DNA from: Escherichia phage CBA6
Direction: 5' to 3' (one strand)
DNA: 28,906 bases
Sequence record: KM389305.1
The notes below the pieces were generated by a model that was not told the DNA's origin, did no database searches, and saw only the letters and a list, made by a program, of their open reading frames with translations. Of the stretch, positions 287 to 28,906 are shown piece by piece (within the stretch, counting starts at the first letter, position 1; each line of letters begins with the position of its first letter). Position numbers and translations under genes: made by a program.

Positions 287-306
287 GGGGAGGAAACTCC
301 CCATTT
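287..306 (+). terminator. GC-rich stem-loop GGGGAG-GAAA-CTCCCC followed by ATTT; candidate intrinsic terminator or RNA processing hairpin
   Basis: Perfect 6-bp inverted repeat with GAAA tetraloop directly after the stop of the upstream CDS and about 20 nt before the next start. Confidence 0.45.
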
Positions 307-322
307 GAATCGGAGGTGATTT

Positions 323-514
323 ATGCTACGTTGCAAAAGAGGTTCCAACTCCTTTAAGTTGGGCATGCTGACTGGAGTAACGTTCATGATTGCTTTAGAC
401 AGCCTTGTGGGACTGCTTTCCCTTCCTGATTTTAGGATGGAACGATTCATATTGCTCGTTCTATTTGGCGGCGTCTCTATTATCTGTACCCTGAAAGCAT
501 ATAAAAAGATTTGA
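323..514 (+). CDS. small membrane protein (two predicted hydrophobic helices)
   Basis: SD-like GGAGGTGA 4 nt upstream of the ATG; hydrophobic stretches LGMLTGVTFMIALDSLVGLL and FILLVLFGGVSIICTL. Confidence 0.5.
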   Translation: MLRCKRGSNSFKLGMLTGVTFMIALDSLVGLLSLPDFRMERFILLVLFGGVSIICTLKAYKKI

Positions 515-587
515 CCTGATTACACACAGCAATTTTGATTTGAGACTCTATATCATGCTTATATTACTGAATGTTTCAAAGAAAGCG

Positions 588-1040
588 ATGACGCCTATAA
601 CTGAGGGTGTCAATCATTACAACATATACAGCCAAAGCCGGACTGATCTGGGAAAATTCCTATCGCATTTTACCCATCATCCAATTGAAACCTTGGACGG
701 ACACTTCGATTCTATCGAGGGATATTGGTATTGGATAAAATATCGCGATGATGCTCTTCGGCATCTGAGTGGTTATGAAGCCAAGAAGTATGGATTGGAT
801 TTGGGTAAAATACAAATCCCTCTCGTTGATTCAGATTCCCCCATATTGCGTTCTCGTATTATCGCGGCGACATCAGCCAAGTTGTTGTCTATGCCACCAA
901 GACTGCGATTCCAATTGGCTCACAGCCGACTTCCCCTTATTCATGCATATGAGCATCAGGGGAAATATAGTTTTCAATCTTCTATGGATTTTATAATCCA
1001 TCATATTAACCGCTTTCGCTTAGAAGGATATTTGAAATGA
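588..1040 (+). CDS. hypothetical protein, possible NADAR (YbiA/DUF1768)-like domain
   Basis: ORF 540-1040; start at the in-frame ATG 588 (MTPITEG) is an inference. N-terminal segment NIYSQS..LGKF..HF..PIETLDGHF..EGYW resembles the NADAR signature as recalled from memory. Confidence 0.4.
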   Translation: MTPITEGVNHYNIYSQSRTDLGKFLSHFTHHPIETLDGHFDSIEGYWYWIKYRDDALRHLSGYEAKKYGLDLGKIQIPLVDSDSPILRSRIIAATSAKLLSMPPRLRFQLAHSRLPLIHAYEHQGKYSFQSSMDFIIHHINRFRLEGYLK

Positions 1041-1615
1041 AATTTATTCGTCGCATCTTAGAAACATCTTATGAACTCAGCCAGAAAGAACCGAATCGCC
1101 CATCTGTATTTGTGTTCTGTAAACTTGTAGAAGAAACATGTGAACTATCGGACGTGTTCTACGAGATTGCTGCGTCGGAACCTTTGAATGGGGAAGTGGC
1201 GGATGTTATCATCTCGGCTCTGGATTTGTTGTATGTTACTGAATATCAGCATATCCAACAACATGGTTCCATGACAAAAGAAGAAATATTCGATTCTGTC
1301 ATTTATGCGTTGGCTCAGGCCAACCACACAACAAACTTATCAGAGCATACCTTGGAAGATTACTGGTTCTGTGGTGGTGTAGATCCGGTGGATAGGCAGT
1401 TGGCTAGGATCAATCATTACAAAGGCCGCATCACCCGACTTCTGAACCAGCCGCAGCGTTCAAATGACCAAATCTTCGATCTGATCAACGGTGTTATTCG
1501 TCACACGGCTAAACTGGCTTGTGACTGCAATGGCAATCTCAAGAGTACGATCCCTGACGTAGAACGCGCTGTTGAACACAAAGTACAGAAATGGCGCGGT
1601 AAATTTGGTCTATAA
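1037..1615 (+). CDS. all-alpha NTP pyrophosphohydrolase (MazG / dimeric dUTPase superfamily)
   Basis: ATGA start/stop overlap with the upstream gene; acidic helix motifs KLVEETCELSDVFYE and GEVADVIISALDL typical of MazG-like metal-binding EExxE...E..D helices. Confidence 0.45.
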   Translation: MKFIRRILETSYELSQKEPNRPSVFVFCKLVEETCELSDVFYEIAASEPLNGEVADVIISALDLLYVTEYQHIQQHGSMTKEEIFDSVIYALAQANHTTNLSEHTLEDYWFCGGVDPVDRQLARINHYKGRITRLLNQPQRSNDQIFDLINGVIRHTAKLACDCNGNLKSTIPDVERAVEHKVQKWRGKFGL

Positions 1616-1662
1616 GCCGACCCCATACATAATCTTGTGTTTACCATTGACGGGATAGGCCG

Positions 1663-3573
1663 ATGTCTAATATGATTGATATTGAACGAAAATACAAAAA
1701 GCTCACTCACATAGAGCATATCCTTCTTCGCCCAGAGCGTCATCTGGGCAGTATCCGTTCAGCCGTTGGAACGACTTGGATATATGATCCAATAAAAGAT
1801 CAAGTTATATTCAAGGATAATTTTGAATATTCTCCTGCATTGATTAAACAGTTTGATGAAATTATCACCAACTCTGTAGATCATAGCAAAACGCCAGAAG
1901 GTAAAAGCCTCACAGAAATCACCATTACCGTTTCTCCTATGAATGGTCAGATCATCGTGGCTGACAATGGGGGTATTCCGGTTGTTAAACACGGGGAGAC
2001 AAAGGAATGGCTCCCTGAGATGTTATTTGGCTCCCTCTATGCGGGTAGCAACTTCAACGACGACGATGAAGAATACAATAACAAAAAATCAGGTGGGCAG
2101 AACGGTGAAGGGGCTTCACTGGTCAACGTATTTTCAAAATGGTTCCGTGTCACGACAAATGACGGGAAGAAGTCTTACACTCAAACATTTGAAGACAATT
2201 TGAGCAAACGTTCTAATCCGGTGATCAGTAATTTGAATGCCCCTGGGACGTCTATCGCATGGATACCTGATTATGCGCGTCTGGGTGTCAAAGGTCTTGA
2301 TCAAAATAACTTGTTGATGATCTATCGCCGCGCATTTGAAGTGGCTGCTTGTAACCCGTGCCTGAAAGTCATTCTGAACGGGAAACAAATCCGTATCGAC
2401 CGCTTTGGCCATTTTGTGGATTACTTTTGCCAAGGTTCCTCTGTTGATGAAACAGAGGAGTGGTCTGTTGCTGTTGCTCCTTCGCAGGGGACGTTTGTTC
2501 ATGCATCATATGTGAACAGTATCGCCACCCATATCGGTGGTCCTCATGTGGATTACGTTGCTGATCAAATCGTGGCGGCTATTCGGCCTCAGCTGGAGAA
2601 GAAGTTCAAGACCGAACTGCGCCCAGCAATGATTAAGAACCATATGATGCTCTTCATTTCGGCGGATATCAACAATCCACGCTTTGATAGCCAAACCAAG
2701 GAGCGCATGACGACTCCTGTTAGCCAGTTTGGCACGACCTACAAGCCAAGCGAACGTCTGATTCGTAAGGCGCTGGAGTTTGTTGGTGCTGGTCTGTCTA
2801 AGGAACTAGCCTCCCTTCGTAACGATAAGGAAGACGAGGAGTTTGAGAAGGCCAAGAAGGATATCATCAAGCGGGACTATCGTGATATCGAAAAGTATCA
2901 CCCAGCCACCAAGCGTGGTGATCGCTCTAAGTGTATCCTGGTGCTGACCGAAGGTGATAGCGCCTCCAACCCCATCCTCAATGCTCGTAACACTGAGACC
3001 ATCGGGTTGTTCCCTCTACGTGGGAAGTCTATCAACTGTCGTAATGCTACCCGCAGCAAGATCATGGCGAACGAAGAGTTCAAGAACCTGTGTACGATAC
3101 ACGGTGGTGCAGTCCCTGGCCAGCCACTTGATACGAAGCGCTATCCGTTCACTTTAATCGCCACCGATGCGGACGATGACGGCATCCATATCCGTGGGCT
3201 TCTGATCAACTTGTATTGCACGTACTGGCCGGAATACGTCCGTCAGGGTAGGCTGAAGCTCCTGCGCACTCCTTTCCTTCGCCTGTGGGCGGGTAAGGAA
3301 ATGTATGAGTTCATGAACCAAGATGAATACAATGCATTCCTGAAGACCCCAGCGGCCAAGAAGATCACGAAGAAGAAATATCTGAAAGGGCTGGGTGGCA
3401 ACAGTACTGAAGATTTCAAACGTATTCTAAACAACCTTGATGCGTATACTACAACGGTCGTATTGGACGATGAGTATGAAACGGCGTTAAACAACGGATT
3501 CAGCGAAGCGGCATCTGATTACCGCAAGACCTGGTTCAGTGATGTCTGCCTGTTTGAATCTGAGGATGAATAA
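1663..3573 (+). CDS. gp39: DNA topoisomerase II large subunit (GyrB-like ATPase plus toprim), T4 gp39 and gp60 equivalents fused in one ORF
   Basis: 636 aa; GHKL-type motifs EIITNSVDHS and ADNGGIPV; toprim motifs LVLTEGDSASNP and IATDADDDGIHIRG. Confidence 0.9.
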   Translation: MSNMIDIERKYKKLTHIEHILLRPERHLGSIRSAVGTTWIYDPIKDQVIFKDNFEYSPALIKQFDEIITNSVDHSKTPEGKSLTEITITVSPMNGQIIVADNGGIPVVKHGETKEWLPEMLFGSLYAGSNFNDDDEEYNNKKSGGQNGEGASLVNVFSKWFRVTTNDGKKSYTQTFEDNLSKRSNPVISNLNAPGTSIAWIPDYARLGVKGLDQNNLLMIYRRAFEVAACNPCLKVILNGKQIRIDRFGHFVDYFCQGSSVDETEEWSVAVAPSQGTFVHASYVNSIATHIGGPHVDYVADQIVAAIRPQLEKKFKTELRPAMIKNHMMLFISADINNPRFDSQTKERMTTPVSQFGTTYKPSERLIRKALEFVGAGLSKELASLRNDKEDEEFEKAKKDIIKRDYRDIEKYHPATKRGDRSKCILVLTEGDSASNPILNARNTETIGLFPLRGKSINCRNATRSKIMANEEFKNLCTIHGGAVPGQPLDTKRYPFTLIATDADDDGIHIRGLLINLYCTYWPEYVRQGRLKLLRTPFLRLWAGKEMYEFMNQDEYNAFLKTPAAKKITKKKYLKGLGGNSTEDFKRILNNLDAYTTTVVLDDEYETALNNGFSEAASDYRKTWFSDVCLFESEDE

Positions 3574-5969: not shown

Positions 5970-6202
5970 ACGAATTATACGAATTTGAACGCGCATATGA
6001 ATCGGCTTCTGTTTCAGGATATATGCAACGTTTGTATCAAGAAATTTGCTTTCGTTTGATGTCGCGCGGGATATCTGTTAATCGTGTCATGTCACAACCA
6101 GACAGTTTTATTATTACACTCACCGACCATCGCCAGAATATGTGTATCATTCAGGTCAGTTGTGTCGACAACGAAATTATACAATGGAGACGTTACGCAT
6201 GA
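5966..6202 (+). CDS. hypothetical protein
   Basis: 78-aa ORF; start overlaps the upstream stop and its own stop overlaps the macro-domain start (ATGA), suggesting translational coupling. Confidence 0.4.
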   Translation: MNELYEFERAYESASVSGYMQRLYQEICFRLMSRGISVNRVMSQPDSFIITLTDHRQNMCIIQVSCVDNEIIQWRRYA

Positions 6203-6804
6203 CCACTTATATTATCACAAATGGCGATTTATTAAAAGCCGCCACGAGTTTCAATCTTATCAATGCCTTTGCTCACGGCGCAAATTGTTGGTCTGTAATG
6301 GGCGCGGGTATCGCCAATCACGTTCGATTGAATTTCCCAGAGATTTACCGCGCCGACCAATTAGATGAACGTGGTCCGGAACAGCGCTTGGGAAACATGT
6401 CCTATGCGTTTGATCATGACACTGGTGTCTGGGGATTCAATTTGTATACTCAATTTTACCCAGGTCCCAATGCTCGCATGCCATCTATCATTAGCTCAGT
6501 CCAGATCATGTTTGAACAAATTCATGATATCGTTGAAGCCAAAGCTGATGAAACTGTCTATGTTGGTTTGCCCGCCATCGGTTGTGGTATTGGTGGCTTG
6601 AATCTCACACATGTGGTGGGCCAGATTAACAAAATCGCCGAAACCATCTTTGAAGATACTCGCCGCCGCGTGGTCCCAGTATTCTATATTCGGGAAGGGG
6701 ATGGATTCGAAAAGGATTTACAAGAACTCTCTCAAATGATCGACTTTGGGATCTCGGTTGTTCCTAATGAAGAAGACGTCATCGAAGAGGAAAGCATCGG
6801 ATGA
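6199..6804 (+). CDS. macro-domain protein (ADP-ribose binding / ADP-ribosyl hydrolase family)
   Basis: Start at ATG 6199 in an ATGA overlap; motifs ITNGDLLKA, NAFAHGANCWSVMGAGIA and VYVGLPAIGCGIGG match the macro-domain signature. Confidence 0.55.
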   Translation: MTTYIITNGDLLKAATSFNLINAFAHGANCWSVMGAGIANHVRLNFPEIYRADQLDERGPEQRLGNMSYAFDHDTGVWGFNLYTQFYPGPNARMPSIISSVQIMFEQIHDIVEAKADETVYVGLPAIGCGIGGLNLTHVVGQINKIAETIFEDTRRRVVPVFYIREGDGFEKDLQELSQMIDFGISVVPNEEDVIEEESIG

Positions 6805-8216: not shown

Positions 8217-8530
8217 GTCACTCGGACAATAGGATGAAAGAACAAGAAATCATTCAGCACTGTATCAGACTGGGAACATTAAAACCCCTATATCAGGCTT
8301 TGCGTTTTAATGCTATTAAGTTCAAGCCATTATCGAGAACTATTGCGACATTCTTTGCCATGCGTTCTGTTGGAAAAACGATTTTCTTTGAGCATGACAT
8401 TTATTTTTATACAAAGATTAATGGCGAAGATTTAGATAAAATGATTTTCGTGAACGACGACAAAAATATGAAGATAAAGGTGGAAAACGAATTGCGTAGA
8501 ATCAATGACTCTTTGAGGGGAATAATTTAA
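8207..8530 (+). CDS. hypothetical protein (first gene of cassette)
   Basis: 107-aa ORF with SD GGGGG; no recognisable motif. Confidence 0.45.
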   Translation: MKPRHSDNRMKEQEIIQHCIRLGTLKPLYQALRFNAIKFKPLSRTIATFFAMRSVGKTIFFEHDIYFYTKINGEDLDKMIFVNDDKNMKIKVENELRRINDSLRGII

Positions 8531-9192
8531 TGGAAATCGTTGTCTCTGTATCTGATTGTGAATTTGTGTACCGTGTCCTTCAAGGGGATGCACCTTTGCC
8601 GGAAAATAATCAAGAAGTGACATTGTTTTGGTCAGGCGGCGTGGATAGCACATACATGTTGGTTTGGTTATTATCGAAAGGTTATTCGGTTCATACTGTG
8701 TATTGCCATCTGGAAAATAATAATTTCAAATCCAAACGTGAGAATTGTGCGCGAAATAAAATTTATAATTGGATCAACAAGAATGCTCCGCTTCTTATGC
8801 ATCGTTGGACTCATCACCAAGAACCGATTAGTAGCATTCACGTGCCGGACGGCGGGTTTCGTGCGTGTTTAGCACAAGCCCCGATATGGTTATTAAACAC
8901 ACAATTTAAGGGCCGGAGTTTGCCTCCCACATACATATTGGCATATGTCAACGGGGACGACGCGATCCACTGGATCCCAGCTTTCAATAAGGTCATCGAA
9001 GGATACAATATGATGACAAGAGACGGGGAAAGGCCAATTGAAATTTTATATCCTTTGATTAGTCTCAAAAAATCATGGTTTTATCACCATATGTCTCCAA
9101 TACATGGTTTGATGACGTGGTGTGAAATGCCAATTTTGAGAAAAGACTGTAATTGCCCTGCATGTACCCGCCATCGCTATGAGTTATCATAG
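8530..9192 (+). CDS. PP-loop ATP pyrophosphatase, QueC-like (7-cyano-7-deazaguanine synthase family)
   Basis: PP-loop TLFWSGGVDSTYMLVWLL; C-terminal four-Cys cluster TWCEMPILRKDCNCPACTRHR matching the QueC zinc-site pattern; about 220 aa as in QueC. Confidence 0.55.
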   Translation: MEIVVSVSDCEFVYRVLQGDAPLPENNQEVTLFWSGGVDSTYMLVWLLSKGYSVHTVYCHLENNNFKSKRENCARNKIYNWINKNAPLLMHRWTHHQEPISSIHVPDGGFRACLAQAPIWLLNTQFKGRSLPPTYILAYVNGDDAIHWIPAFNKVIEGYNMMTRDGERPIEILYPLISLKKSWFYHHMSPIHGLMTWCEMPILRKDCNCPACTRHRYELS

Positions 9193-25980: not shown

Positions 25981-27043
25981 GATCGAGACGCTCCAGCATA
26001 TCTGCAGGCATAACCGAACTCTGAGAGATACCGAACATATTGTTTACATCGTCAACAAAATCTGGGTTTTCCAGCAGTGGATACCAGAAGTCATCCCCCA
26101 GCTCTGACTTGCGATATTTCTTCTCTTTCTCTGGATCAAACCCGCCTTTGGCTGTACGCTGATACCAGGAACCGCTCACCAGATCAACATATCCCAGCAT
26201 GCGTGCAATTTCCAACATGCCAGACCAACGGTCAATACCGCCTTCATACAATACCGTCACAGGGAACTTGGCTTTTTCACGAACAAAGCGGCCTTTCATG
26301 ATGTTAACAGTGAATTGCCAACCCAGAAGATCTTTGTCTTCCTTAACTTGGGAACGGGTGATGAACCACAATTGGTTAGATGATAGGAAACCTTGCTTAC
26401 CGCCTTTGATATTTGGTTCGGCATACTGGTTCCCGATTTCATCATAATAAGAGTTGATCCACACCAAAACGAATTTCTTTTCAGTGACCAACGGAGTGAT
26501 GACACGCCAAAAACTATTGAGAGCACGAGCGCGGGTCATATCTTGTGTATCTTTACCCGCGATGGCGTCATCCACTTCTTTGGTAGACGGCAACTGGCTG
26601 ATTGAGTCAATAAAGACGATGATTTTATCGCCTTTTTGGGCATCATTCAGAAGTTGAGTCAGCTTGATCTTCGTCTTTTCAACGTTTTCGATCGGCAGAT
26701 ATAAAACACGATCCATGTCGATACCCATGGACGTCCAATAGTTTTCATTCGCGCCGCCTTCCGAATCCGCGAAGATACAAATTGCGTCGGGAAACTTGTC
26801 CATGTAAGCCTTGACATCTACCAGACCAAACATGGTTTTGAATGTACGAGAATCACCCACCAACTGCTTAATACCAGATATCAGCCCACCATCAATACGA
26901 CCAGACCAGGCCAAATTCAGGATAGGAATACCCGTGCTACAAATAATATCAGGCTTCAGCGCATCGGTTTTAGACAGCACTTCGGCATTCGGATCCAATT
27001 TCTTTGCTGTCTTGAGCATGCGAGCCATCAATGAATCGGCCAT
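25958..27043 (-). CDS. uvsX: UvsX-like RecA-family recombinase
   Basis: 361 aa; P-loop-like VGDSRTFKT and RecA-core-like composition; uvsX-40-41 order as in T4. Confidence 0.55.
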   Translation of the reverse strand: MADSLMARMLKTAKKLDPNAEVLSKTDALKPDIICSTGIPILNLAWSGRIDGGLISGIKQLVGDSRTFKTMFGLVDVKAYMDKFPDAICIFADSEGGANENYWTSMGIDMDRVLYLPIENVEKTKIKLTQLLNDAQKGDKIIVFIDSISQLPSTKEVDDAIAGKDTQDMTRARALNSFWRVITPLVTEKKFVLVWINSYYDEIGNQYAEPNIKGGKQGFLSSNQLWFITRSQVKEDKDLLGWQFTVNIMKGRFVREKAKFPVTVLYEGGIDRWSGMLEIARMLGYVDLVSGSWYQRTAKGGFDPEKEKKYRKSELGDDFWYPLLENPDFVDDVNNMFGISQSSVMPADMLERLDHVIKTTE

Positions 27044-27558
27044 TTCGTTTCCTCTTGCTTGTTGATCGTGATTAATAAATCGGTGCCCAAGACTTTCTTG
27101 GACAATATGTTAATTGCTTCTTGAATTGCCATTACCGACGGGAGTTTTTCATCACTGATTCCGGAACCCCCGCGTTCTGTTAAATACATATTGCGCAGAC
27201 GATTATGCTGTGCCCTATTGACACATGACAAATTTAACGCAATATTCAAAACATACATTAGTTGTTCGGTTGTAACATCTTTTGGTATAGCATGAACATA
27301 ATATATCGCATCTTCAAAATAGATATGCTGTAATGACTCTGGAATTTCTTCCCCGCCAAAAGCAAAATCTTCAATGCGTTTAAAAAGTGTTTCCGGCTCT
27401 TTGGTTGTAATATGTTGTGTTACAGTAGCCGCACCATCTGGCTCTTTCTTGAAATTGGTCGCAATAACGACATGACCGCCTGGTTTAATAAACTCAGCGA
27501 AGTTCTCTGCCATGCGCGGGGCATGTTCCGCATAATATGATACGACAACTGTAAACAT
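27028..27558 (-). CDS. hypothetical protein
   Basis: 176-aa ORF, start overlapping the upstream stop; no motif recognised. Confidence 0.4.
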   Translation of the reverse strand: MFTVVVSYYAEHAPRMAENFAEFIKPGGHVVIATNFKKEPDGAATVTQHITTKEPETLFKRIEDFAFGGEEIPESLQHIYFEDAIYYVHAIPKDVTTEQLMYVLNIALNLSCVNRAQHNRLRNMYLTERGGSGISDEKLPSVMAIQEAINILSKKVLGTDLLITINKQEETKWPIH

Positions 27559-28115
27559 TAGAACTCCAGGGTCAGAGGGGTTTCTGCGGACTTATCGTAG
27601 TACGCACCGCCAGCAGCACGCAGCCGATTGCGATCATTTTTGCGTTTGTGTGCCAGCATGTAAGTTTCGGCGTCCAGCCCCACGTAAGAGCAAGACGCGC
27701 TCAGGAAATACATCAGGGAACGAACGCAAGGATCGCCCATGAACTGTCCAAAGCGGTAGGTCACCCCGCCGTGGGCAACTATGCCGTTAACGATAGACAT
27801 GGCATAACTATCCTTAGACATTTCCTCTAATTCTTCCTCGATCTCTCCTTTGGTGCGATCGACGAGGATGAAACACAGCATGAAGTGAACCACGTCCACC
27901 AGTTCATAGACCGCCTTCGTGCGGTCGAAGCCGATATCGTTACCATAGACCTTCCAGTCGGCGGTCGTTTCGTCAAGAAACTCTGCCCACTCACGATATA
28001 TGGAGTTGACGACGGCGTTCTGACTCCATACATTCTTCCACTCTTCCCCAAAATAGGCCACGTTGGTGGCCTTTTGGAGTTCGAGCAGACTTTTAATATG
28101 CTCTGCTGTGATCAT
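27558..28115 (-). CDS. all-alpha NTP pyrophosphatase, candidate dCTPase/dUTPase (gp56-like)
   Basis: 185 aa; acidic helical motifs AYFGEEWKNVW, REWAEFLDETTADWK and VYELVDVVHFML; start/stop overlap with the dNMP kinase gene. Confidence 0.45.
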   Translation of the reverse strand: MITAEHIKSLLELQKATNVAYFGEEWKNVWSQNAVVNSIYREWAEFLDETTADWKVYGNDIGFDRTKAVYELVDVVHFMLCFILVDRTKGEIEEELEEMSKDSYAMSIVNGIVAHGGVTYRFGQFMGDPCVRSLMYFLSASCSYVGLDAETYMLAHKRKNDRNRLRAAGGAYYDKSAETPLTLEF

Positions 28116-28681
28116 TTCCGATCCCTATAAAATTTGACGAACGGTTGCCAACCTTCAAACGGATTGACAAATTCATAATCAACTTCCATCTTATCAATGA
28201 AAGCCTCAATGTCATCCTCTATGATACCACCGCGATCCGCCTTTGAAATGCGGGTGATGGGACATTTAGTGCTCAGCGCCCATTCATATTCCTGAGGGGT
28301 ACGCAAATCACTCACGATATAATGAACGTGTGGGTTCTGCTCCACCAAAGGGAGTTGATATCGTTTAAAGAATGACAGGAACAGGTCTGGTTGTACATAA
28401 CGCAAGCCCGTATCGCTGCCCAGATGAAGCCAGATCTGCCGTGGGGTTAAGCCCTTGGGGTTATCAGGGTGTACGAATGGAACGTCCTTCACAGCATCCT
28501 CCACCTCCGCTGGTAGCCATGGGTAGATGAAATTGGCGACACGTCGCAGTTCATCTGAGAAAGACAGACGACGAATATCCTTATCACCCTGAATATGATG
28601 AAACCTGATCAGGGACTCCAAACAGAAGTCCTTGCCGGAGCGCTTGCGCCCCGTGAAGAATTCAAGGTTCTGGTACATCAT
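28112..28681 (-). CDS. gp1: deoxynucleoside monophosphate kinase
   Basis: ORF 28112-28696; start at ATG 28681 is an inference from the ATGA overlap with the upstream stop; P-loop variant FTGRKRSGKDF matches the T4 gp1 signature as recalled. Confidence 0.55.
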   Translation of the reverse strand: MMYQNLEFFTGRKRSGKDFCLESLIRFHHIQGDKDIRRLSFSDELRRVANFIYPWLPAEVEDAVKDVPFVHPDNPKGLTPRQIWLHLGSDTGLRYVQPDLFLSFFKRYQLPLVEQNPHVHYIVSDLRTPQEYEWALSTKCPITRISKADRGGIIEDDIEAFIDKMEVDYEFVNPFEGWQPFVKFYRDRK

Positions 28682-28906
28682 TCGCCATACCCCCACATAA
28701 ATTTCTGATCAACAGGGGAATGTAGTAATGCAGTACGAAGACCGTCATCAGCGATACGGCGTTTGTCAATTTTGGTATCATTGAGTCGACACCACAGGCA
28801 ATATGACATATCCATCATCAATCCCGTGTCTGCTTGATATCCTTTCAGATGTTCTCTGATTTTACCAAAATCACTGCCGATGTCACAGTGATGTAACACG
28901 CCGAGG
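28678..28906 (-). CDS. 3' end of a CDS whose start lies beyond the window (hypothetical protein)
   Basis: Minus-strand frame is open to the window edge; stop at 28678-28680. Confidence 0.4.
   Translation of the reverse strand, partial: LGVLHHCDIGSDFGKIREHLKGYQADTGLMMDMSYCLWCRLNDTKIDKRRIADDGLRTALLHSPVDQKFMWGYGE

Follow-up and report, generated by a model that had tools for sequence, protein, structure and literature searches.

A pair of small overlapping genes upstream of the topoisomerase II genes of Escherichia phage CBA6 raises the question of whether this phage encodes a NADAR-type enzyme of ADP-ribose removal, and whether such an enzyme works together with the product of the gene that follows it. 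Both genes lie in a 28,906-nucleotide stretch of the phage DNA (KM389305.1), which was analyzed as a whole and is referred to as the window. An earlier note on this DNA, made from the letters alone, had tentatively read the first open reading frame (ORF1) as a NADAR/YbiA-like protein coupled to the second (ORF2), a MazG-like pyrophosphohydrolase. Judged by its sequence, the source phage is a Kuttervirus (Ackermannviridae, ViI-like): over window positions 300-1700, its identity was 99.4% to Salmonella phage vB_Hercules_SET and 97-99% to numerous further genomes of Kuttervirus. In the records of relatives ORF1 was mostly labelled 'hypothetical' and in one case (FrontPhageNews, MW021754) 'putative N-glycosidase', and ORF2 was labelled 'MazG-like pyrophosphatase' or 'viral tegument-like protein'.

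Homology of ORF1 to the NADAR superfamily

ORF1 was compared with 24 database orthologues (25 sequences aligned), 60 distant relatives and 47 multidomain relatives, and its residues are numbered here as in the 150-amino-acid form of the protein. The sole direct family match of ORF1 was phrog_652, a family of 'unknown function'. A word-indexed protein search recovered the Ackermannviridae orthologues only, and the distant relatives were reached by an exhaustive profile search, in which the orthologue profile matched at least 1368 representative clusters (50% identity) at E<=1e-3 among 1.84 billion proteins, this being a lower bound on the size of the family. One homologue from a jumbo phage, 35% identical to ORF1, was annotated as a 'NADAR domain-containing protein'.

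The family was connected to known NADARs by profile comparisons. In the PDB, the ORF1 family profile matched the P. nicotianae NADAR (PnNADAR; 8BAU, E=8.3e-5) and YbiA (2B3W, E=0.02). By hhalign, the family was aligned to E. coli YbiA with a probability of 95% (E=4e-8) and to T4 gp30.3/AdfN with a probability of 90% (E=1.6e-6), the latter alignment including the His residue considered below. The Pfam model PF08719 NADAR was matched by four of the 60 distant relatives (best E=8.6e-5), and PF08010 Phage_30_3 was matched weakly by 15 of them (best E=9.3e-5). T4 gp30.3 itself scored 237 bits on PF08010, and ORF1 gave no match at the gathering score of that model.

The earlier note had pointed out an N-terminal pattern of the NADAR/YbiA type, and every element of it was found in ORF1 (N12-I-Y-S-Q-S17, G22-K-F24, F28, P32-I33, D37-G38 and E44-G-Y-W47). 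These positions were nearly all invariant among the 24 orthologues, with identities down to 54%, and among the 60 relatives, which were 31-42% identical to ORF1; therefore, the pattern represents a real conserved signature and not a chance resemblance. The consensus of the family was DGxTHINxYS...LGRxLSNF...DGxFxSxEGYWYWL...LRxLxGxxAKxxG...LPLxHYY.

A structure model of ORF1 was obtained with a predicted local distance difference test (pLDDT) value of 96.8 and a predicted template modeling (pTM) score of 0.89. The only significant structural neighbors of this high-confidence model were YbiA, the P. nicotianae NADAR and the G. lovleyi NADAR, and the comparison with YbiA that the earlier note had suggested thus came out in its favor. 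The modeled chain is predicted to adopt an alpha+beta fold, in which a helical core lies between two small beta-sheets, and which can be superposed on the crystal structures of YbiA and NADARs. The assignment of ORF1 to the NADAR superfamily was supported by the profile matches to 8BAU and YbiA, by hhalign and by the structural neighbors of the model.

Among the 47 multidomain relatives, the partners of the ORF1-type domain were DUF4326, YAcAr/SLOG and Macro (six cases each), DprA-like SLOG (five) and DUF488-N3a (four), and also exonucleases. Fusions with Macro, SLOG and DUF4326 have been described for viral NADARs (Iyer et al. 2022, PMC9503650), and these shared partners therefore lend independent support to a role in ADP-ribose biology. 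An ORF1-type NADAR domain was also seen at the N-terminus of a 963-amino-acid protein encoded by a viral contig (L056, 4992-7883).

The residues expected in a NADAR active site were then located in the alignments. Glu44 was invariant (25/25, 60/60 and 47/47 sequences), and its counterpart in both profile and hhalign alignments was the Glu of 8BAU, YbiA and T4; together with Lys51 it was aligned to SSEQY..K of 8BAU, SEHYFQAQK of YbiA and E36/K43 of T4. A Glu (E43 in PnNADAR) and, at a distance of seven residues, a Lys (K50) are largely conserved across NADARs (Schuller et al. 2023, PMC11543638), the equivalent residues being E88/K95 in the E. coli C7 protein and E36/K43 in T4 (PMC11543638, PMC11257639). 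Both T4 AdfN and the E. coli C7 NADAR require this Lys, and the function of AdfN is abolished by the E36A as well as the K43A substitution (PMC11257639, PMC11543638). Lys51 was present in ORF1 and in 23 of the 25 Ackermannviridae orthologues, and Lys66, aligned to K75 of PnNADAR, was invariant.

His119 was invariant in the 60 relatives and nearly invariant in the 47 multidomain ones. At this position the YbiA family carries Glu, the DarT1-linked NADARs Asp and the phage proteins of the gp30.3 type His (PMC11543638, PMC11125620), and ORF1 has the His ahead of its last beta-strand, as do the gp30.3/AdfN-type proteins. The earlier note had regarded the Gly that replaces His after the catalytic Glu as a weakness of the NADAR match. 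It is not a defect: the same Glu-Gly occurs in the experimentally active T4 AdfN, where the segment reads L-E-G-F-L-Q-G-C-K (PMC11257639).

ORF1 nevertheless differs from each of the characterized proteins. Compared with T4 gp30.3/AdfN, it has E-G-Y-W-Y-W-I-K in place of E-G-F-L-Q-G-C-K, an N-terminal H-x-N-I-Y-S strand is conserved in its family, which shows A-K-x-x-G where T4 has A-Q-x-x-G, and its gene lies upstream of topoisomerase II, whereas the gp30.3 gene of T4 is found near DNA ligase. The sequence identity of ORF1 to E. coli YbiA and the P. nicotianae NADAR (PF08719; 2B3W, 8BAU) was 18-20%, with EGYWYW against EHYFQA, SHF (in the Kuttervirus clade) against SNF, and His against the distinguishing Glu; moreover, YbiA does housekeeping work in the riboflavin pathway, for which a phage has no need. 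The features of DarG1, the DarT1-associated NADAR antitoxin (BC4488 family; 8BAT), were also missing. DarG1 carries a beta1-beta2-alpha1 N-terminal extension, which is absent from ORF1, whose domain starts at about residue 12 of 161, and the catalytic Asp of DarG1 is His in ORF1. No DarT gene adjoins ORF1, the neighbors being an HU-like gene, a small membrane ORF, ORF2 and topoisomerase II, and ORF1 stands as an orphan in the genome of a lytic phage.

The reading frame reported in the earlier note for ORF1 (588-1040) was confirmed, but its start at 588 is probably wrong, and the orthologues point to ATG 555 as the likelier start, giving a protein of 161 amino acids. The 11-residue N-terminal extension (MLILLNVSKKA, window 555-587) was open, and a similar extension was present in 23 of the 24 database orthologues. 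The Met equivalent to position 588 is replaced by Leu or Phe (codon CTT or TTC) in the ackermannviruses of Erwinia and Serratia, and therefore the upstream ATG is the sole possible start there; in the Erwinia locus it is preceded by AGGAG. The matches of distant relatives to ORF1 began no earlier than about residue 12 of the 161-residue form, which makes the extension lineage-specific.

ORF2 and the distribution of the gene pair

On the basis of its structure, its acidic motif and its PHROG match, ORF2 is an all-alpha nucleoside triphosphate (NTP) pyrophosphohydrolase of dimeric-dUTPase architecture. Its sole family match was phrog_1247, 'MazG-like pyrophosphatase' (E=4e-37). The protein formed an all-helical bundle, structurally closest to dimeric dUTPases and MazG (5MYD, 1W2Y, 3CRA), and 138-151 of its residues were superposed on dimeric dUTPases, with which it has the ExxE...ExxD pattern in common. 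In the all-alpha NTP pyrophosphohydrolase superfamily the EExxE...ExxD motif binds the catalytic metal ions. This motif was intact in ORF2, where E32, E33, E36, E53 and D56 were invariant or at least 90% conserved in the family alignments, and hhalign lined it up with LEETYE...GELGD of E. coli MazG, an alignment that was not statistically significant. The ORF2 family was essentially confined to the Ackermannviridae; besides, faint matches to its N-terminal part were recorded in T4-like phages of Aeromonas. With the ATGA overlap, the all-alpha fold and the intact motif, the MazG-like pyrophosphohydrolase overlapping ORF1 that the earlier note had described was confirmed.

The coupling of the two genes, which the same note had proposed, was examined at 80 viral loci with a homologue of ORF1, the flanks of which were searched with the ORF2 profile. 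An ORF2 homologue was located directly downstream of ORF1 in 21 of the 22 Ackermannviridae loci, as opposed to none of the 58 loci of other phages. The exception was an Erwinia ackermannvirus (phiEa2809-like; L028:4971-7371), in which the ORF1 homologue abuts the gene of the large topoisomerase II subunit and the ORF2 gene is absent. Adjacency and the ATGA overlap were kept in Kuttervirus, Agtrevirus-like, Limestonevirus and Miltonvirus genomes, even with an ORF2 of only 28% identity. Outside the Ackermannviridae no recurrent neighbors of the ORF1 homologues were found, save in 11 near-identical contigs of one sample; in Vibrio phage K476 the homologue lies between nrdG and an exonuclease gene. 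Functional coupling of ORF1 and ORF2 was therefore rejected. Since the pair is restricted to the Ackermannviridae, its adjacency reflects inherited synteny and translational coupling and is not evidence of a shared pathway, and the connection drawn earlier holds for position only.

Proposed roles of the two proteins and their alternatives

All tested NADARs, three phage ones included, remove ADP-ribose from guanine, and T4 AdfN, NADAR-Bas32 and NADAR-Bas60 counter DarTG1 (PMC11257639, PMC11125620, PMC11543638). NADAR genes were present in 27% of myoviruses in one survey (PMC9503650). It was judged reasonably probable that ORF1 is a His-type NADAR removing ADP-ribose from a nucleobase, in an anti-DarT1 role, and that ORF2 is an independent deoxynucleoside triphosphate (dNTP) pyrophosphohydrolase, the two not forming a functional pair. 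The data show the fold, the homology to the superfamily, the conserved active-site residues, the domain fusions and where the gene pair occurs, whereas the substrates, the role against DarT and the specificity of ORF2 are inferred. We proposed that ORF1 would be a small stand-alone member of the phage His-type, gp30.3/AdfN-like branch, expressed from the early/DNA-metabolism block. By analogy with every NADAR assayed, it would most likely hydrolyze the N-glycosidic bond by which ADP-ribose is attached to a nucleobase. DarT1-modified guanine is its most likely substrate because all assayed NADARs act in this way and three unrelated phage NADARs defeat DarTG1. The modification most probably recognized would be N2-ADP-ribosyl-guanine, placed on the phage DNA by host toxins of the DarT1 type, so that ORF1 would serve as an orphan antitoxin and let replication go on. 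In the predicted active site, Glu44 would position the distal ribose, Lys51 and Lys66 would hold the pyrophosphate, and His119 would take the place of the Glu of YbiA or the Asp of DarG1.

ORF2 would be a Mg2+-dependent (d)NTP pyrophosphohydrolase that most likely trims the pyrimidine dNTP pool of a phage replacing thymidine with derivatives of hydroxymethyldeoxyuridine (hmdU); the replacement of thymidine is known for ViI-type phages (PMC5889632, PMC8989533). A role in pyrimidine-dNTP control is plausible by analogy to gp18 of phage SH-Ab 15599, a dTTPase/dUTPase of the dimeric-dUTPase fold from another hmdU-hypermodifying phage (PMC13458397); like ORF2, gp18 is found in a phage that builds hmdU-derived DNA. 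The two genes would be co-transcribed and translationally coupled while their products remain functionally separate. The dimeric dUTPase recognized by PF08761 near the end of the window (Table 1) is a more natural dUTPase/dTTPase candidate for the hydroxymethyl-dU pathway than ORF2. A PF24021 phage ACT-like protein and a dNMP-kinase-like gene lie on either side of it (27028-27558 and 28112-28696, both on the minus strand), it stands beside hydroxymethylase genes, and in FrontPhageNews a thymidylate-synthase-like gene comes next, just past the end of the window.

A number of observations weigh against these roles. As a single sequence, ORF1 matched no Pfam family at E<=1, PF08719 NADAR and PF08010 Phage_30_3 included, nor any NCBIfam or PADLOC model, and a phmmer search of the PDB was empty at E<=10. 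The NADAR profile search proposed in the earlier note was thus negative for a direct match to PF08719, but positive when the family profile and hhalign were used. The N-terminal extension thought to bind single-stranded DNA in the DarT1-linked NADARs is absent from ORF1. The Lys seven residues after the Glu was found in only nine of the 60 wider-family members, L, G, S or Q mostly standing in its place, so that the family may use a chemistry other than that of canonical NADARs. The literature searched on Ackermannviridae or Kuttervirus in connection with NADAR or DarTG yielded no study of the ORF1 protein and no assay of any Ackermannviridae member, the checked 'NADAR' matches being the surname of an author. 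As for ORF2, no match was found in Pfam (MazG and dUTPase_2 included) or NCBIfam, its profile reached 7ODY MazZ as the best relevant PDB entry at E=0.2, its N-terminal half likewise gave nothing significant in the PDB, and hhalign gave no significant alignment either with E. coli MazG or with the PF08761 dUTPase of the phage itself. ORF2 is all-helical, as are these enzymes, but without significant sequence similarity to the Pfam MazG and dUTPase_2 models, to E. coli MazG or to that dUTPase. The specificity proposed for ORF2 is further weakened by the second, bona fide dUTPase that the phage already has.

Some of these points would fit the main alternative, which was considered unlikely, namely that ORF1 acts on soluble molecules derived from ADP-ribose, such as second messengers of immunity or toxic products of NAD+ breakdown in which there is an N-glycosidic link, and so blunts immunity based on NAD+ or ADP-ribose. 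Iyer et al. (2022, PMC9503650) argue for this in the case of most phage NADARs, which also speaks against a DNA substrate of ORF1, and the SLOG, Macro and DUF4326 fusions noted by them occur in the ORF1 family as well; the missing DNA-binding extension and the variable Lys point in the same direction. However, every phage NADAR assayed de-ADP-ribosylates guanine in DNA and counters DarTG1 (PMC11257639, PMC11125620), a soluble substrate has been demonstrated for no phage NADAR, and ORF1 lies among DNA-replication genes. It appears quite improbable that ORF1 reverses another kind of nucleic-acid ADP-ribosylation, either on guanosine or cytidine of RNA or at marks placed by a phage-encoded or other host ADP-ribosyltransferase (ART) unrelated to DarT1. 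NADARs do reverse the ADP-ribosylation of RNA guanosine (PMC11833690) and of cytidine (PMC12945103), and in T4-like phages NADAR genes are early and stand alongside those of ARTs (PMC9503650), but no ART was annotated in the inspected 50 kb, a part of the genome, of the close relative ECML-4.

The remaining possibilities concern the gene pair and the activity of the fold itself. A dedicated Ackermannviridae pathway, in which ORF1 would cleave the N-glycosidic bond of a product of ORF2, either a nucleoside monophosphate or a nucleotide related to ADP-ribose (e.g., dTTP via dTMP), was held to be very improbable, as was a milder reading, in which an anti-DarT1 ORF1 would be tuned to DNA containing 5-(2-aminoethoxy)methyl-2'-deoxyuridine (5-NeOmdU), as AdfN appears tuned to hydroxymethylcytosine (hmC) DNA. 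If such a two-gene pathway were true, it would give a NADAR a role outside ADP-ribose biology. Hardly credible was the specific two-step destruction of an unwanted dNTP such as dTTP, by which ORF2 would release the dNMP and ORF1 would split it into base and sugar phosphate, thereby excluding thymine from the hypermodified DNA. This scheme would agree with the ATGA overlap and adjacency across Ackermannviridae genera, even at 28% ORF2 identity, with the replacement of thymidine in ViI-type phages, and with the established cleavage of ribosylamino-pyrimidine phosphates by YbiA (cited in PMC11543638). It is contradicted by the absence of the pair from all 58 ORF1 loci outside the Ackermannviridae and of ORF2 from the Erwinia ackermannvirus, by the partners of the ORF1 relatives, which are Macro, SLOG and DUF4326 and not nucleotide-metabolism domains, and by an active site of the His type of ADP-ribosyl hydrolases. 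It was regarded as extremely improbable, too, that ORF1 is a catalytically dead NADAR fold merely binding ADP-ribose or DNA. The replacement of the canonical E-H-Y-F-Q by E-G-Y-W-Y-W and the missing direct Pfam match might suggest so, but Glu44, Lys51, Lys66 and His119 are all kept under strong conservation, and T4 AdfN is active although it has the E-G variant (PMC11257639).

Locus layout and significance

The positions of the features are collected in Table 1.

Table 1. Features of the ORF1/ORF2 locus and of related genes in the window
Feature	Position	Strand	Details
ORF1, NADAR-superfamily protein, His (phage gp30.3-like) type	555..1040	+	161 aa from ATG 555; 150 aa from internal ATG 588; stop TGA 1040
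ORF1 E44-G-Y-W-Y-W-I-K51, catalytic Glu and Lys seven residues on, core helix 43-52	717..740	+	alignments to 8BAU, YbiA and T4
ORF1 His119, immediately before the C-terminal beta-hairpin	942..944	+	aligns to T4 H123 (hhalign); precedes model strand 120-123
ORF1/ORF2 junction, ATGA stop/start overlap (4 nt, 1037-1040), with AGGA Shine-Dalgarno for ORF2 (1025-1028) inside the end of ORF1	1025..1040	+	read from sequence
ORF2, all-alpha NTP pyrophosphohydrolase (MazG / dimeric-dUTPase superfamily)	1037..1615	+	ATG 1037 to TAA 1615, 192 aa
ORF2 E32-E33-T-C-E36 ... E53-V-A-D56, EExxE...ExxD acidic motif, predicted metal-binding	1130..1204	+	conserved in ORF2 alignments
DarG-like macro-domain protein	6199..6804	+	NCBIfam antitoxin_DarG E=1.5e-9; PADLOC DarG E=1.6e-10; PDB 5M3I E=4e-5, 5M31 E=2e-3
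Dimeric dUTPase PF08761	27558-28115	-	33 bits vs cut-off 22.9

ORF1 and ORF2 stand in a T4-like early/DNA-metabolism block. The gene order in annotated relatives was rIIA, rIIB, several small genes, the HU-like gene, a small ORF, ORF1, ORF2, the large and medium subunits of topoisomerase II, a macro-like 'phosphatase' and DexA. The Shine-Dalgarno sequence of ORF2 is placed 8 nt upstream of its start. A conserved hydrophobic ORF of 63 amino acids without a family match was observed just upstream of ORF1 (window 323-514), and a GGGGAG-GAAA-CTCCCC hairpin follows the HU-like gene (window 287-302). The stretch immediately upstream of ORF1 (521-554), which reads TACACACAGCAAT...TTGATTTGAGA..CTATATC, was kept among Kuttervirus and Agtrevirus-like loci. 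Its conserved 13-mer, TACACACAGCAAT, was considered as a repeated promoter motif and rejected because it occurs once in the window. A scan of positions 200-1750 for sigma-70 promoters and terminators performed no better than on shuffled sequence, and the minus-strand ORFs within 588-1615 (43-60 amino acids, without support) were rejected.

The macro domain to which the earlier note had drawn attention was confirmed by the DarG profile matches, and together with the homology of ORF1 they show that two ADP-ribose-processing folds coexist in this phage. The macro protein is Tk.4-like in ECML-4 and also labelled 'phosphatase'. In a pairwise alignment the segment of M. tuberculosis DarG with the catalytic Lys (FPTKKHW) was matched by FYPGPNA of the macro protein, without the Lys, and therefore its mechanism may differ from that of DarG. 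Another gene of the window (8530-9192, plus strand) encodes a PP-loop ATPase whose matches to QueC, ThiI and MnmA were limited to their N-terminal nucleotide-binding part; its product was labelled 'QueC-like' or 'alpha hydrolase' in relatives.

NADARs in myoviruses, the characterization of T4 AdfN and the NADAR or N-glycosidase labels on a few GenBank records of the ORF1 family were already known. Modestly new is the firm evidence that the Ackermannviridae gene, with a large family around it that the Pfam NADAR and gp30.3 models miss, falls in the His-type NADAR branch; phrog_652, of 'unknown function', gains an annotation thereby. New are also the corrected start of ORF1, the variable Lys, a gene pair that is not a conserved functional module, and the dimeric-dUTPase-like ORF2, with which the genome is predicted to encode two enzymes of this fold.

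Phage NADARs have recently been shown to act as orphan antitoxins against DarTG1, the described examples being from T4-like, T5-like and rV5-like phages. Every member of the Ackermannviridae examined, a group of phages in wide use for the biocontrol of Salmonella, E. coli O157 and Klebsiella, has the ORF1 gene, and the annotation of this gene predicts that deletion mutants would be sensitive to DarTG1. The phage would also provide a second system with modified DNA in which to ask whether the specificity of a NADAR follows the base modification of the phage itself.

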